64,000 nt of DNA from a plasmid. Position 1 is the stretch's first letter; each line of letters starts with the position of its first letter. A program made the translations under genes and the position numbers. Positions 4,461-48,640 of the stretch are shown here, in pieces. Below the pieces are notes generated by a model. It searched no databases, was not told the DNA's origin, and saw only the letters and a list, made by a program, of their open reading frames with translations. Location: sequence record NZ_CP154590.1; one strand, given 5' to 3'.

Positions 4461-5280
4461 GGCACTGTTGCAAAGTTAGCGATGAGGCAGCCTTTTGTCT
4501 TATTCAAAGGCCTTACATTTCAAAAACTCTGCTTACCAGGCGCATTTCGCCCAGGGGATCACCATAATAAAATGCTGAGGCCTGGCCTTTGCGTAGTGCA
4601 CGCATCACCTCAATACCTTTGATGGTGGCGTAAGCCGTCTTCATGGATTTAAATCCCAGCGTGGCGCCGATTATCCGTTTCAGTTTGCCATGATCGCATT
4701 CAATCACGTTGTTCCGGTACTTAATCTGTCGGTGTTCAACGTCAGACGGGCACCGGCCTTCGCGTTTGAGCAGAGCAAGCGCGCGACCATAGGCGGGCGC
4801 TTTATCCGTGTTGATGAATCGCGGGATCTGCCACTTCTTCACGTTGTTGAGGATTTTACCCAGAAACCGGTATGCAGCTTTGCTGTTACGACGGGAGGAG
4901 AGATAAAAATCGACAGTGCGGCCCCGGCTGTCGACGGCCCGGTACAGATACGCCCAGCGGCCATTGACCTTCACGTAGGTTTCATCCATGTGCCACGGGC
5001 AAAGATCGGAAGGGTTACGCCAGTACCAGCGCAGCCGTTTTTCCATTTCAGGCGCATAACGCTGAACCCAGCGGTAAATCGTGGAGTGATCGACATTCAC
5101 TCCGCGTTCAGCCAGCATCTCCTGCAGCTCACGGTAACTGATGCCGTATTTGCAGTACCAGCGTACGGCCCACAGAATGATGTCACGCTGAAAATGCCGG
5201 CCTTTGAATGGGTTCATGTGCAGCTCCATCAGCAAAAGGGGATGATAAGTTTATCACCACCGACTATTTGCAACAGTGCC
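4461..5280 (-). mobile_element. IS26: IS26 (copy 1, 820 bp).
   Basis: 14-bp terminal inverted repeats GGCACTGTTGCAAA and TTTGCAACAGTGCC at exactly 820 bp spacing. Identical to copies 2 and 3. Confidence 0.95.
4513..5217 (-). CDS. tnp26: IS26 transposase Tnp26 (234 aa from [10 protein letters not shown]).
   Basis: Exact IS6-family Tnp26 sequence. Confidence 0.95.
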
Positions 5281-5962
5281 GCCAGGAATGCCCGGCGCGC
5301 GGATACTTCCGCTCAAGGGCGTCGGGAAGCGCAACGCCGCTGCGGCCCTCGGCCTGGTCCTTCAGCCACCATGCCCGTGCACGCGACAGCTGCTCGCGCA
5401 GGCTGGGTGCCAAGCTCTCGGGTAACATCAAGGCCCGATCCTTGGAGCCCTTGCCCTCCCGCACGATGATCGTGCCGTGATCGAAATCCAGATCCTTGAC
5501 CCGCAGTTGCAAACCCTCACTGATCCGCATGCCCGTTCCATACAGAAGCTGGGCGAACAAACGATGCTCGCCTTCCAGAAAACCGAGGATGCGAACCACT
5601 TCATCCGGGGTCAGCACCACCGGCAAGCGCCGCGACGGCCGAGGTCTTCCGATCTCCTGAAGCCAGGGCAGATCCGTGCACAGCACCTTGCCGTAGAAGA
5701 ACAGCAAGGCCGCCAATGCCTGACGATGCGTGGAGACCGAAACCTTGCGCTCGTTCGCCAGCCAGGACAGAAATGCCTCGACTTCGCTGCTGCCCAAGGT
5801 TGCCGGGTGACGCACACCGTGGAAACGGATGAAGGCACGAACCCAGTGGACATAAGCCTGTTCGGTTCGTAAACTGTAATGCAAGTAGCGTATGCGCTCA
5901 CGCAACTGGTCCAGAACCTTGACCGAACGCAGCGGTGGTAACGGCGCAGTGGCGGTTTTCAT
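5281..5962 (-). pseudogene. intI1: Class 1 integron integrase intI1, lacking its 3' end (about 225 of 337 codons kept), truncated by IS26.
   Basis: [49 protein letters not shown]... The ORF then runs into IS26. Confidence 0.9.
5847..5875 (+). promoter_or_regulatory. Pc: Integron cassette promoter Pc, hybrid PcH1 type (-35 TGGACA, 17-bp spacer, -10 TAAACT). P2 is inactive (TTGTTA-14 bp-TACAGT).
   Basis: Read directly in the intI1 5' region on the cassette strand. Confidence 0.6.
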
Positions 5963-43386: not shown

Positions 43387-44045
43387 TCACCAGCCTGGCA
43401 ACAGCATGGAGCCTGCCGTTACTGCTGGGTTTTGCGCTAATTGGCAGATGCCTGATGTGGAGAGTACTCGACTTTCTGGAAGATACCACTGCTCATAGTA
43501 AGGAGCGGAACTCGCTTCTAACTGCTGGGATTTGGCTTTTCGCCACGTTCAGTATGATCGCTGCCCTGTCACCGACTCCAATTGCCGATCGGGCTGCTGC
43601 CATCATGATGATGGGCTTCCTGCTTCAGTCCGGTATCACCGACGCAGTCAGTGGATATTTGCCACGTACTTTCACAGCACGTCTGTTACTTGGAGGACTT
43701 ATTTGGGGAGTAACAAAAGACGTTTCGATTGCAGGTGTATATACGCAATTGGTGGAAATCGCTGTGGTGGGCGGCCTGATGACGTTGCTGAGTATCCTGA
43801 TAAACCGGGGCGATCAGCGTCTTGGTCGGGGAGATTTATGGCTGATAACAGGTCTGACGGCCTGGATGGGGGGGAAAGATGCAGCACTGGCCACTCTGTT
43901 TGGTGCTGCAGCCTTTATGCTCTGGCTGCTAACCTGGCATTTGTCCGGAAAAAAAGAGGGGCCCCTTGGCCCCTGGTTGTGTCTTAGCGGGAGTCTCTTC
44001 CAGTTATCCAATCTGTATCAACCTGTATGGATATCAATCTTATGA
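43371..44045 (+). CDS. pilU: PilU prepilin peptidase (A24 family).
   Basis: Polytopic membrane protein with conserved Asp residues. Position after pilT. Confidence 0.75.
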
Positions 44046-45424
44046 AAAAGCACGATCGTGGCTGGGCGAATCTTGATGTTGCTCTGGCGCTCATAGTTGT
44101 GATGGCAATGACCGTCTTTGGACTCACTAAATACAAAGACTGGCAGCAGGAGAAAAACTGGCAGGTTGAAGCCTCCCATATCAGTACATACGCAGCTGCT
44201 GCACGGGGATACGTCGGTCGTAACTACGCCACTTTGTTAAGCGCAACCAGTACCACCGCGCCGACAGTGATAACTACGGCCATGCTTAAAAACACGGGTT
44301 TCCTGCCGTCCGGTTTCACCGAAACAAACAGTCAGGGTCAGCGTTTGAACACTTATCTGGTCAGGAATGGGCAAAACACGGAGTTACTACAGGGCATGGT
44401 AGTATCCAGCGGTGGCAGTGTATACCCGGACAAGGCATTGAGGCTGATATCAAGGGATATCAAAACCGGTTTCGGGGGCTACATTGATGATGGTAAAACC
44501 GCCACAGGTGCCCTGCGTTCTTGGAAAATCCTGCTGAGCAGTTACGGTGCCACCTCTGGTAATGGACATATTGCAGTACTCCTCTCAACAGATGAGCTGT
44601 CTGGTGCGCAGGAGGACAACGACAGGCTGTACCGTTTTCAGGTAAATGGGCGTCCCGATCTGAATAAAATGCACACTGCTATCGACATGGGTGGTAACAA
44701 CCTGAACAGTGTCGGCACCATTAATGGCCAGACTGGAACATTTAGCGGAAACGTCAGTGGGTCAAACGGTATTTTTACCAGTAATGTCAGCGGTGCAAAC
44801 GGTAGTTTCACCCAAAACATTACAGCCGGAGCACAGGTAAAAGGAGCAACGGTCCGTGCCGACAGCGACATTAGCGCCGGACGCAATATTACGGCAACTA
44901 ACGAGGTTTCTGGTGCCACAGTCAAAGCAACAGGCAACTTGTCAGCAGGTGGGGTTTTGCAGTTGGATCGGATCAATGTTGCAGGCATCGCTTGTTACCC
45001 GAATGGGCAGATAAGCCGCGATGCCAATGGCGGCGTACTTTCCTGTCAATCCGGCGTGTGGGGCGGATCTGACAGCTACCCTGTTGGTAGCCCTATTCCG
45101 TGGCCTTCCACAACACCCCCACCAGGTTTCTTTTTAATGGCAGGGCAGAGCTTTTCATGCGGTTCTAACCCTAAACTGGCTATTGTTTATCCTGGATGTG
45201 TATTACCCGATCTACGCGGCACATTTATACGTGGTTGGGATAATGGGCGCGGCCTCGACAATGGACGAGCTATTCTCAGTTACCAAAAAGACCAAAGTAA
45301 TATGATCCTTAATACTGGTGGTAGGCTCGAAGGCCATCATAACGGTATGGATCATTACTACTCAAATGGTAGTGAAGTACGCCCTAAGAACGTTGCGTTT
45401 AACTACATAGTCAAAGCCGGTTGA
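44027..45424 (+). CDS. pilV: PilV tip adhesin/minor pilin. The constant region runs to about 45043, and the currently fused variable C-terminal segment is 45063-45424.
   Basis: The prepilin-like N-terminus (start probably MKKHDRGW at 44042) and an in-frame 19-bp sfx repeat at 45044 show that a shufflon-selected C-terminus is fused. Confidence 0.8.
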
Positions 45425-47424
45425 GGAAACTGTCAATCCGGTGCCTGGCGTTCCCCCTCTCCATCTGATGGTATTTACACCTCTCTCGGAGCGTTTAAAG
45501 GCTTTTTTAGTAGCAGCAACACAACTGGAAAGCAGTTTAAAATATATGCCTGGGGAGGCAATCCCCCCCCCAAAAAAATCAACTTTGGTAACTCAGATAA
45601 CTGTGCCAATACGTTTTCACTGACAGCTACAGTTGGCGGCCTTACTGTTGCACACTCAATCGATGGTAACTCTCAGTGGCAGAAATCTGGAAGTTTTTCA
45701 TTTGATGTTCCTGATGGCCAATCGTTCTCGATTACATCAAATGGAATGATGGCTTATGGGTGCGATTACGGCAGTTTTAATGTGTTTCGTTTCCAGTAAC
45801 CCATATCATATGTTGCGTTTAAAAACAGCAGGAGAACCTGCGTACAACGTATTTTCTGGTACATCCGAACGTACTACGCTGTTTGCCGCTATAACGCTGT
45901 TATTGCCAATTGTAACGCCCGGTAAAACGACGACGCCTGCTCCTAGCCATACCTTATGGCCAATACTGATTGGAGCCTGAGTAACGCCACTACATCTCAA
46001 TTCAGGCGAAGTTTCATGGCTGGCTGTCGTCAGTGTGACATTCGGTCCAATCAGGGTATTGTCGCCTATCGAAATTGACGCATGATCGAGGAAGACACAT
46101 CCAGTGTTGATGTAGACACCTTGACCGATCGTTATGCGACCATATTCATAAAAAAATGGGGGGGTTACTGCGCTTTCGCCAGTTATGACAACCCCTGATT
46201 TTTTGAGCAACTTGTTGCGTGATTTTCTTCGAAGATTTGTTGTGTTGAAGAGGTTTCTGGCAGTCGGTACTTTCAACCTGTTTCTTAATGTACTGAAGAG
46301 ATACGTAAGCATTATTAGCGGCTTCCTTTGCTTGTGCTTGAGGATTTATCCAAGTTTATCATTCAGTTAATTTTTAGCACACCACGCTATTGCGCGCATA
46401 CACGTTCCACCCGTAACACCACCTCCAGTAACAAGTTGCCAGGCATTATCTGATGGTGATGGCATTGAGGAATCTGGGGCGTTCCACCCGTTACCACCTG
46501 TCCAGTTTGAGAGAACCCAGCCACCCGAAATCAATTGTTTTCCGGCAGGACAGTAGGCTTTTGAGTAGACGTATTTGCCACAAGCATCATTTCCTTGAAT
46601 CATTTCAAATGCTGATACCTTGCCGCTGGACGTCCACGCACCGGATTGACAGTCACACTGACTCTGTTGAGTTCATTTTTATGAGCAGCTAATTATGAAG
46701 CTGCATTTCCCTGTTAAATCCGTTCGGTTAGTGCCTGGGTGAAAGACATATTCATCATAGTAGCCGCATGTAACCACTCGGTTTGCATCTACGGCAGCAA
46801 CTTGACCGGCGAAGTAATTTGGTTTCCATCCATGTGGATTTTCGCTATTGCTGACACTCCAGGTGCATTGGTTTTGGCTAAAACCTGTGGGCAGCGGAAT
46901 CTGTTGCCCGTTGCCGATTAAACCCGTTAAAACTGTACTCCCTATGTTCCTGCGCCAGACACCGGATTGACAGTTAGAAACAGTTGATCATAACAGCACC
47001 GCCTAATGTATTAGTTTGCCAGAGGTACTTACCTTCACCATCCGGCCCGGCTACTGGGTAGATCTGCGATCCACCACCTTGTCCGTAATGCCCTAAAGCA
47101 CAATATCTGGCCCATGTAATATTGTTGACACCAACTGGAGAAGCGACAGAAAAAAAACCGATTTTCAAACCACTATTCCACACGCCGGATTGACAGATTA
47201 ATTAATTCAGTCTGACTGCAAAACATCTAACGTTATCTATAGTGCAAGTTTGGTTATCTTCTGTACAAGCATCAGATCCAGTGGCGACCCAACCTTGTGC
47301 CGTTAACCCGCTCGAATTCAAGGAAGTCTGGCAAATATCGCCGTAGTTATTCCCTGAATTTACTGACCATGTGTAACGCTGTATTTTTTTTTCCCCAGAA
47401 TTAGCCCAGGCACCGGATTGACAG
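45044..47424. repeat. shufflon: Shufflon multiple-inversion region with six 19-bp sfx repeats (CTGTCAATCCGGnnnnTGG core). The segments encode alternative PilV C-termini on both strands.
   Basis: Direct sfx repeats at 45044-45062 and 45430-45448. Inverted sfx repeats at 46634-46652, 46956-46974, 47178-47196 and 47406-47424. Confidence 0.8.
45806..46312 (-). CDS. Hexapeptide-repeat (left-handed beta-helix) sugar O-acetyltransferase of the maltose/galactoside acetyltransferase (Maa/LacA) family, located inside a shufflon segment. Its N-terminal ~50 aa are atypical and possibly frameshifted.
   Basis: ...YGRITIGQGVYINTGCVFLDHASISIGDNTLIGPNVTLTTASHETSPELRCSGVTQAPISIGHKVWLGAGVVVLPGVTIGNNSVIAANSVVRSDVPENTLYAGSPAVFKRNI aligns motif-for-motif with E. 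coli Maa, including the catalytic His. Confidence 0.6.
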   Translation of the reverse strand: MLTYLFSTLRNRLKVPTARNLFNTTNLRRKSRNKLLKKSGVVITGESAVTPPFFYEYGRITIGQGVYINTGCVFLDHASISIGDNTLIGPNVTLTTASHETSPELRCSGVTQAPISIGHKVWLGAGVVVLPGVTIGNNSVIAANSVVRSDVPENTLYAGSPAVFKRNI

Positions 47425-47476
47425 AATTATTGCATTTTTCTCTTAAGGCTTTATTTTCTTCACCTTTTTAGGAGTA

Positions 47477-48640
47477 ATGATGTCTTCCGTTGCGCGTATT
47501 AGAAAAATGCCCCTCAGTCGTGGCCTCGATAAATATTACGAATCAGTATCTGTTCATAAAAAGGGCCACCTTCAGGAGTTTTACCGAACCAACGTCATTA
47601 AGCGCCACCCACTGGCCAGCAGGAATATGGACGAAATCACCACGGTTGATATTGCCGCCTACCGTGATGAAAGACTGACCCAGCGCAACCCCAGGACGGG
47701 GAACCCTATCACCGGTAATACAGTAAGACTTGAGCTGGCGCTATTGTCATCACTTTTCGGTATTGCGCGTGTGGAATGGGGAACCTGCCGTAGCAATCCG
47801 GTCGAATTAGTGCGTAAACCGAAAGTATCAAAAGGTCGTGATCGCCGCCTGACATCCACTGAAGAGCGCAGACTGTCCCGGTATTTCCGCGAGCGAAACT
47901 TAATGCTGTATATAATCTTTCATCTCGCGCTGGAGACAGCCATGCGTCAGGGTGAAATCCTTAACCTGCAATGGGAATATATTGATCTGCAGCACGGTGT
48001 GGCGCACCTGCCAGACACCAAGAATGGGTCATCGCGTGACGTTCCCCTCTCACGCAAAGCACGTAATCTGCTTCAGATGTTGCCGGCCCAACTAAAAGGT
48101 AAAGTATTTTCCTATACGTCATCCGGTTTCAAAAGCGCCTGGCGGCTCGCCCTCAAGGCCCTCACTATCGAAAATCTGCATTTTCATGATCTTCGGCACG
48201 AGGCCATCAGTCGCTTTTTCGAGCTCGGTACACTGAACGTTATGGAGGTCGCTGCAATTTCGGGTCATCGGTCGATGAATATGCTTAAACGCTACACCCA
48301 TCTGAGAGCTTACCAACTGGTCAGCAAGCTGGACGCGCGACGGCGCCAGACTCAAAAGATTGCCCCCTACTTCGTACCTTATCCCGCACTGGTAGAACAG
48401 GATTGCGGAAGTACTGGTGACATAAGAGTGATGCTATGCGACTTCGAAAACTTGATGGTGTCGGCGCCGACCCGCGAACTTGCCCTGACCCGCGCCAGCG
48501 AACTGCTACTACGCACTCTGGCACTTGCTGCCCAGCGCGGCGAACGAGTCCCTGCACCAGGGGAACTCCCCATCAAAACAAACGACCACATCATGATTTG
48601 TCCGCTTAACCCCGACCAGGCTCTCTCGGCCCGGGCGTAA
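47477..48640 (+). CDS. rci: Shufflon-specific tyrosine recombinase Rci.
   Basis: 387 aa with a phage-integrase-family catalytic domain (...[11 protein letters not shown]...RY). Immediately follows the last sfx repeat. Confidence 0.85.

Follow-up and report, generated by a model that had tools for sequence, protein, structure and literature searches.

A sugar O-acetyltransferase-like gene within an invertible segment of a plasmid pilV shufflon, linked to one PilV C-terminus

Shufflons, a textbook case of programmed DNA inversion, determine which recipients a conjugative plasmid can reach, and the current view is that adhesin tips are all they shuffle. We analysed a stretch of 64,000 nucleotides from the plasmid record NZ_CP154590.1 (the window), which has a pilV–shufflon–rci locus at 44027–48640 in which six sfx cores bound five invertible segments. 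One of these segments carries a complete gene for a 168-amino acid sugar O-acetyltransferase-like protein, here called Act, between two alternative PilV C-termini. A first reading of the letters alone (the sequence-only reading) had placed such a gene inside the shufflon, and its coordinates for the sfx repeats, the C-termini and the open reading frame (ORF) were right to within a few bases. The features of the locus are:

44027–45042, plus strand: constant region of pilV, ~339 N-terminal codons, up to sfx1; Shufflon_N
45043–45056, plus strand: sfx1 core, CTGTCAATCCGGCG, coding for CQSG at the junction of the constant and variable parts of PilV
45057–45429, plus strand: segment A, the PilV C-terminus now joined to pilV, coding to 45424; Collar
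45430–45443, plus strand: sfx2 core, left edge of the B/Act/B' segment
45431–45799, plus strand: C-terminus B, starting CQSGAW, 122 amino acids and a stop codon at 45797–45799, convergent with Act
45806–46312, minus strand: Act, 168 amino acids; Hexapep and LacA/Maa matches; WP_077223963.1, "sugar O-acetyltransferase", in public records
46313–46366, minus strand: spacer of 54 nucleotides (nt) between B' and Act
46367–46651, minus strand: C-terminus B', 94 amino acids and a stop codon at 46369–46367, immediately upstream of Act on the same strand
46639–46652, minus strand: sfx3 core, right edge of the B/Act/B' segment, in the opposite orientation to sfx1 and sfx2
46653–46959, minus strand: segment C (C', 97 amino acids, coding 46972–46682)
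46960–46973, minus strand: sfx4 core
46974–47182, minus strand: segment D (D', 73 amino acids; annotated as "shufflon protein D'" in CP035635)
47183–47196, minus strand: sfx5 core, with one mismatch
47197–47410, minus strand: segment E (E', 73 amino acids)
47411–47424, minus strand: sfx6 core
47477–48640, plus strand: rci-like tyrosine recombinase; Pfam Phage_integrase (PF00589), 5.6e-24

The sfx core has 14 nt and reads CTGTCAATCCGG(T/C)G. Six cores lie within 2.4 kb, two on the plus strand, at 45043 (within pilV) and 45430, and four on the minus strand, at 46639, 46960, 47183 and 47411. With up to two mismatches, the core matched the window 8 times, compared with 0.4 matches expected by chance. 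The cores separate segment A, the B/Act/B' segment and segments C, D and E. Six PilV C-termini are open and in frame, and each begins with CQSG(A/V)W at its own sfx core. Their lengths range from 73 to 126 amino acids (A 126, B 122, B' 94, C' 97, D' 73, E' 73). The pilV ORF in its present form (44027–45424, plus strand) matched Pfam Shufflon_N (7.7e-118) and Collar (4.6e-08). The rci-like protein was 54–77% identical to recombinases flanking other pilV shufflons. In the B/Act/B' segment (45444–46638, ~1.2–1.3 kb), Act stands complete between the convergent C-termini B and B'.

Act matched Pfam Hexapep (2.3e-17), and its best NCBIfam matches were LacA (1.4e-31) and Maa (2.6e-29). A profile built from 29 members of the Act clade was searched against the PDB. 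LacA came first (1kqa, 1.8e-41) and Maa structures next, with LacA and Maa ranging from 1e-37 to 1e-41; NeuO (3jqy) reached only 1.1e-14. The AlphaFold2 model of Act (predicted local distance difference test, pLDDT, 94) was superposed by Foldseek on Maa/LacA structures (2p2o, 1kqa, 4isx) with TM-scores of 0.85–0.87 and a root-mean-square deviation of 1.4–1.6 Å. His99, invariant in the Act clade, aligns with LacA His115, the catalytic base of that enzyme. The catalytic and coenzyme A (CoA)-binding positions are likewise invariant in the clade. Judged by sequence and model, Act is a left-handed β-helix (LbH) sugar O-acetyltransferase-like gene with the fold and catalytic core of LacA and Maa. 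The sequence-only reading had aligned the C-terminal 120 amino acids with these enzymes, including the catalytic His. The alignment and the His stand, but the real span is residues ~13–168, at 34–41% identity.

Act shares with LacA and Maa the LbH fold and the catalytic His with its surrounding motifs, and they are its best PDB matches in both sequence and fold. By its scores, it is nevertheless not an equivalog of either. Its bit scores were far below the NCBIfam equivalog cut-offs, 109.5 versus 347 for LacA (NF007076) and 102.3 versus 314 for Maa (NF007499). The Mac domain (PF12464) was not matched by Pfam in Act or in the clade members, but was present in the outgroup proteins P0113, P0115 and P0119. 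In its place in the comparison stands a basic, clade-specific N-terminus (MLxY...ARxLFN..LSxKxRNxLLxKSGV), modelled as three helices. Act also differs from LacA and Maa in its location on mobile elements, next to genes for adhesins or tail fibres. The label "Maa/LacA-type" given by the sequence-only reading is thus valid for the fold and the catalytic core, and not beyond.

The behaviour of the segment was followed in 14 near-identical copies of the locus, namely the window and 13 PLSDB plasmids with a B/Act/B' segment at least 99% identical. The 13 plasmids are from Citrobacter and Enterobacter, belong to rep_cluster_1444 and MOBP, and several carry KPC. The B/Act/B' segment had no nucleotide match among 5,426 complete E. 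coli genomes. Segment orders were determined by mapping the segments of the window onto the near-identical records (L001–L003, L094–L103). Apart from segment losses in two records, the 14 copies share the same five segments, in 14 different orders and orientations. The constant region of pilV is 100% identical across 13 plasmids, regardless of what comes after it. The shufflon is active: its segments do invert and permute.

Inversion between sfx1 and sfx3 had been predicted to place Act downstream of, and co-directional with, a newly fused pilV variant. This inversion, performed in silico on the window, gave a sequence identical to LR890182 at every base of 2,626 bp. In this state, called ON here (constant region–B'–Act), the annotated pilV ends in B' and WP_077223963.1 starts 54 nt further on, on the same strand. 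ON was the commonest state, found in 9 of the 14 copies (binomial P = 9e-5 against equal use of the six C-termini). The excess could result from selection, from a site bias of Rci or from assembly consensus. C-terminus B, on the other side of Act, is joined to pilV in plasmid CP069803 (L094).

Segment loss was seen in two otherwise identical plasmids, CP024681 (L102) and CP029733 (L103). Segments A, C, D and E are missing in one of them, and A and C in the other. Both retain the B/Act/B' segment, in the constant region–B'–Act state.

Act is under purifying selection. Its dN/dS was 0.07–0.19, at dS values from 0.2 to >1.5, for copies from other shufflons (93–80% amino acid identity) and from Hafnia (61%). 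The length of 168 amino acids and the start are kept across the clade at 44–90% identity, and Act is intact in 12 of the 13 near-identical copies. The remaining copy, in pK218-KPC (OL988823, L101, ~4950–5450), is frameshifted; it appeared as two tblastn pieces, with no coding sequence annotated. This copy, and the related shufflons that have no Act, would fit a decaying remnant or a chance ORF without function. Such an origin is effectively refuted by the selection analysis, to which the preserved length, the invariant catalytic and CoA-binding positions, the confident model and the 12 intact copies can be added. Act as a pseudogene was rejected on the dN/dS values. A remnant common to all related shufflons, which the sequence-only reading had named as a refuting case, is not what was found.

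Twelve diverged pilV loci with Act were compared, six of them Rci-bearing shufflons and six without Rci. The shufflons are on other backbones: Salmonella IncFIB/MOBP plasmids including pATCC10717, a Salmonella shufflon found via P0014 (L107), Klebsiella p447-IMP and Citrobacter MPF_I plasmids. The constant region of their PilV is 27–49% identical to that of the window, B' 84–94% and Act 80–93%, and Act lies directly downstream of B' on the same strand. Their sfx cores vary between shufflon lineages. The ON state was present in four of the six (CP076094, CP074634, CP019193 and CP060445). The loci without Rci are on MPF_I plasmids of Erwinia amylovora, Pantoea and Serratia, and on an integrative and conjugative element of Hafnia. 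Identities there are 35–42% for the PilV constant region, 53–63% for B' and 58–61% for Act, which is convergent to pilV and lies 7–70 nt from the pilV stop codon. In each of the 12 loci, the neighbour of Act is a C-terminus of the same B' type. As judged from these alignments, B' and Act are a two-gene module with conserved linkage.

A stricter claim, that B' and Act always occur together, was dropped after a plasmid-wide tblastn search gave CP053333 and pS39-2. In CP053333 (4099–5760), a Salmonella diarizonae plasmid, a 553-amino acid ORF lies between a B'-type segment and rci; from its sequence motifs it was named a group II intron-type reverse transcriptase/maturase. In pS39-2 (L121, CP045557 81895–89173), 19 sfx cores, 13 of them facing one way and 6 the opposite way, lie within ~5.3 kb, with many B-like and B'-like segments. 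R64 has been described with seven sfx.

The locus resembles the R64/R721-type shufflons of IncI1, IncI2, IncK and IncB/O plasmids in its general plan. In both, the pilV constant region ends at an sfx coding for CQSG, sfx of 14–19 bp occur in both orientations, and an Rci-type recombinase lies downstream. Segments with one or two partial pilV C-termini, and isomer diversity among otherwise identical plasmids, are also common to both. The sfx core differs, being TGTCAATCCGG here and TGCCAATCCGG there, and the backbone is rep_cluster_1444 of Citrobacter and Enterobacter, not IncI. One C-terminus here is a phage tail-collar domain. The main difference is the complete 168-amino acid enzyme gene between two C-termini of one segment. 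Only partial pilV ORFs have been described in the segments of R64, ColIb-P9 and R721 (PMC5430464), in line with the sequence-only reading. Act is absent from E. coli IncI-type segments, which share ~42% identity with B', and no classical E. coli IncI-type plasmid carries it. In the open-access literature, we found no paper on an acetyltransferase, or on any complete non-pilV gene, inside a shufflon; Act itself has been annotated automatically in GenBank. An acetyltransferase in a shufflon segment is a previously unreported arrangement.

The 54-nt spacer between B' and Act contains, on the minus strand, a Shine-Dalgarno-like AGGAAG (46328–46323) and an extended -10-like motif, TGATAAACT (46361–46353). 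No terminator-like site was found between B' and Act. A consensus scan of the Act strand upstream of the gene found no sigma-70-type promoter, and the -10-like motif of the window is weak (TAAACT, no -35). An alignment of seven diverged shufflon copies showed the motif TGnTAAAAT just after the B' stop codon in five of them; pB72C (L104) has TGATAGTAT, and the TG is kept in all seven. The conservation of this motif in diverged copies makes a claim that Act has no promoter of its own untenable. In the loci without Rci, Act has its own sigma-70-like -35/-10 elements and a good Shine-Dalgarno sequence, and pilV-independent expression is therefore possible. Some orientation-independent expression of Act is also possible in the shufflons, judging from the motif. 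A 15-codon mini-ORF in the spacer was dropped from consideration, as its conservation did not extend to the Salmonella copies.

The Act strand carries two hairpins with T-runs that resemble terminators. One (45828–45841) falls within the final 35 nt of Act, and a stronger one (45549–45574), with a 10-bp stem, lies ~230 nt downstream of Act, antisense to B. Either hairpin could be the end of transcripts reading through B' and Act.

These features bear on a doubtful though possible explanation, namely that Act is orientation-independent cargo (a "moron") expressed from its own promoter in any state of the shufflon. The host would benefit through serotype change or phage resistance by surface-glycan acetylation, or through sugar detoxification as for Maa and LacA, and the site would be the insertion-tolerant 3' side of receptor-binding genes. 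The -10-like motif kept upstream of Act in seven shufflon copies fits this explanation, as do the promoter elements of the convergent Acts in loci without Rci. Relatives of Act include typical morons at tail-module ends and some stand-alone chromosomal genes, and the sibling lineage pS39-2 lacks Act. However, the weak motif of the window and the negative promoter scan speak against it, and a terminator-free gap of 54 nt should hardly prevent read-through in the ON state. The same B'-type neighbour in 12 of 12 diverged loci, despite constant regions of PilV only 27–49% identical, is also difficult to reconcile with cargo.

Members of the Act clade (~168 amino acids, at least 44% identity) lie directly beside tail-fibre or tail-fibre-assembly genes in at least nine prophage and phage-plasmid loci. 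The loci belong to prophages of Serratia and Salmonella, a phage-like contig of C. freundii, P1-like phage-plasmids from E. coli and E. albertii, and an N15-like linear plasmid-prophage. In the P1-like L113, L114 and L020 and in the Salmonella prophage L091, the Act homologue (~50% identity) is convergent to the tail-fibre and assembly genes. A GT4 glycosyltransferase gene follows directly after Act in three of these loci (L091, L113 and L020); in L113 it is annotated as a lipopolysaccharide (LPS) N-acetylglucosaminyltransferase. The corresponding 1.2-kb stretch of L114 has no annotated gene. From this gene order, the Act homologue and GT4 probably form an LPS-modifying cassette adjoining the receptor-binding module. 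In a rough neighbour-joining tree, calculated without support values, the pilV-linked Acts cluster and the tail-fibre-linked Acts are on deeper branches. The tree is compatible with the capture of Act from a phage tail-fibre module. No tblastn match was found between B' and the tail fibres beside phage-borne Acts.

Segment A alone among the C-termini is tail-fibre-like. It matched PHROG tail fibre families (4e-40) besides Pfam Collar (4.6e-08), and B, B', C', D' and E' had no PHROG or Pfam match. Segment A (45044–45424) is 50% identical to the Collar protein beside the Act homologue in the Salmonella prophage L091. One PilV–Collar fusion has been published as a novelty (PMC9881135).

We consider it somewhat more probable than the opposite that Act is an accessory surface-glycan O-acetyltransferase associated with a receptor-binding protein, that transcription from pilV reads through into it in the B' state, and that it reduces self-binding or redundant mating. 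Act would then be functional, an accessory gene to the adhesin locus of a conjugative type IV pilus, and its product a cytoplasmic, trimeric-type LbH sugar O-acetyltransferase. It would move as a two-gene module with the PilV variant B', here inside an Rci-invertible segment. Joining of sfx1 and sfx3 by Rci would create the pilV–B' fusion with Act 54 nt downstream on the same strand, and Act should then be transcribed by read-through from the pil operon. In the state of the window, Act is antisense to pil transcription and would be expressed only from a weak promoter of its own.

The substrate would be a sugar of the carrier's own LPS or another surface polysaccharide, by analogy with the tail-fibre-linked relatives. 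A surface-glycan target is suggested because Act relatives pair with LPS glycosyltransferases and adjoin phage receptor-binding genes, and because R64 PilV variants bind defined LPS core sugars (PMC9045228). A paper on PilV-specific cell aggregates appears, by its title, in the reference list of the same article. Acetylation may alter recognition by the cognate adhesin, for example by blocking donor–donor binding or redundant mating, following the logic of prophage seroconversion. Co-transcription with pilV, the substrate and this purpose are what we infer from the arrangement.

A known example of such logic is NeuO of the E. coli K1 prophage CUS-3, a phase-variable LbH O-acetyltransferase encoded beside the tailspike gene. 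Act resembles NeuO and other seroconversion genes as an LbH acetyltransferase of a mobile element beside a receptor-binding gene, with expression that is predicted to be switchable. Its relatives hold seroconversion-type positions in prophages and phage-plasmids. In sequence, Act and NeuO are related at the superfamily level only (3jqy 1.1e-14, versus 1.8e-41 for LacA). The predicted switch here is by DNA inversion, and that of NeuO by repeat slippage; the host element here is a conjugative pilus locus. More speculatively, the locus may be a conjugative-pilus counterpart of seroconversion, an idea we hold only tentatively. Display of B' would be coupled to O-acetylation of the same receptor glycan on the plasmid's own host, so that donors would not bind each other and plasmid carriers would be poor targets. 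This would amount to an inversion-switched self/non-self or exclusion system, inherited from tail-fibre modules.

The layout of the segment also recalls the Mu G (Gin) and P1 C (Cin) segments, which pick one of two receptor-binding C-termini and carry a complete accessory ORF expressed only with its partner. As in Mu G, P1 C and p15B Min, a C-terminus (B', 46651–46367) is followed on the same strand by a complete gene (Act, 46312–45806) within one invertible segment. Those systems use a serine invertase and a tail-fibre assembly chaperone; a tyrosine recombinase and an acetyltransferase are found here, and of the six variants B' alone is paired with an accessory gene. The arrangement is Mu G/P1 C-like, with a different recombinase class and a different accessory function.

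With this layout in mind, Act could be a pilus maturation or modification factor in the place of U/U' of Mu G and P1 C, acetylating a glycan of the pilin or adhesin or being needed by B'-type PilV. The tight adjacency of B' and Act and the position of prophage Acts next to tail-fibre assembly genes would agree with such a role. We regard it as improbable, since Act has a canonical sugar-acetyltransferase core with the catalytic His, and no signal peptide or chaperone-like feature was found in the protein. B'-like C-termini also work in shufflons without Act (E. coli IncI at 42%, pS39-2 at 57–58%, CP053333 at 78%). To our knowledge, no glycosylation of IncI-type PilS or PilV is known.

Several observations weigh against Act as an inversion-gated, glycan-modifying partner of B'. 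The inversion-gated expression proposed by the sequence-only reading keeps its basis in the terminator-free 54-nt spacer of the ON state, but strict gating is weakened by the conserved -10-like motif and by the promoters in loci without Rci. Together, the motif and the convergent, self-promoted layout of those loci argue that Act expression need not require pilV read-through. The excess of the ON state could be mere Rci site bias or assembly consensus. CP053333 (L120) has B' at 78% identity and a group II intron ORF in the place of Act. pS39-2, whose rci is 99% identical to that of the window, has B and B'-like segments (57–58%) and no Act. Many Act-clade genes of Cedecea and Pseudomonas stand alone in the chromosome, and LacA and Maa, the closest characterised enzymes, work on free sugars. 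The position of Act beside receptor-binding genes could, from the gene neighbourhoods, reflect a permissive insertion site and not a shared function. The target itself, whether LPS, another surface glycan or pilin, is known to us by inference only.

A conserved enzyme gene that inverts along with a single adhesin tip, and also persists next to fixed pilV genes and phage tail fibres, suggests that mating-pair recognition involves an accessory function so far unstudied. This function may be the masking of the donor's own receptor. These plasmids of Citrobacter and Enterobacter bear KPC and further resistance genes, which makes factors of transfer specificity a matter of practical interest.

Homopolymers occur within three of the coding C-termini: C9A7 at 45563–45578 in B, A8 at 47150–47157 in D' and T9 at 47385–47393 in E'. 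Variants of such tracts could be slipped-strand switches or sequencing errors. For the tract of B, a single deviating record was found, CP024681 (L102), whose C8 would shift the frame and is possibly a sequencing error. CP069804 (L104) has C8A8, which is in frame, and CP029733 (L103) has T8C5 in E'.

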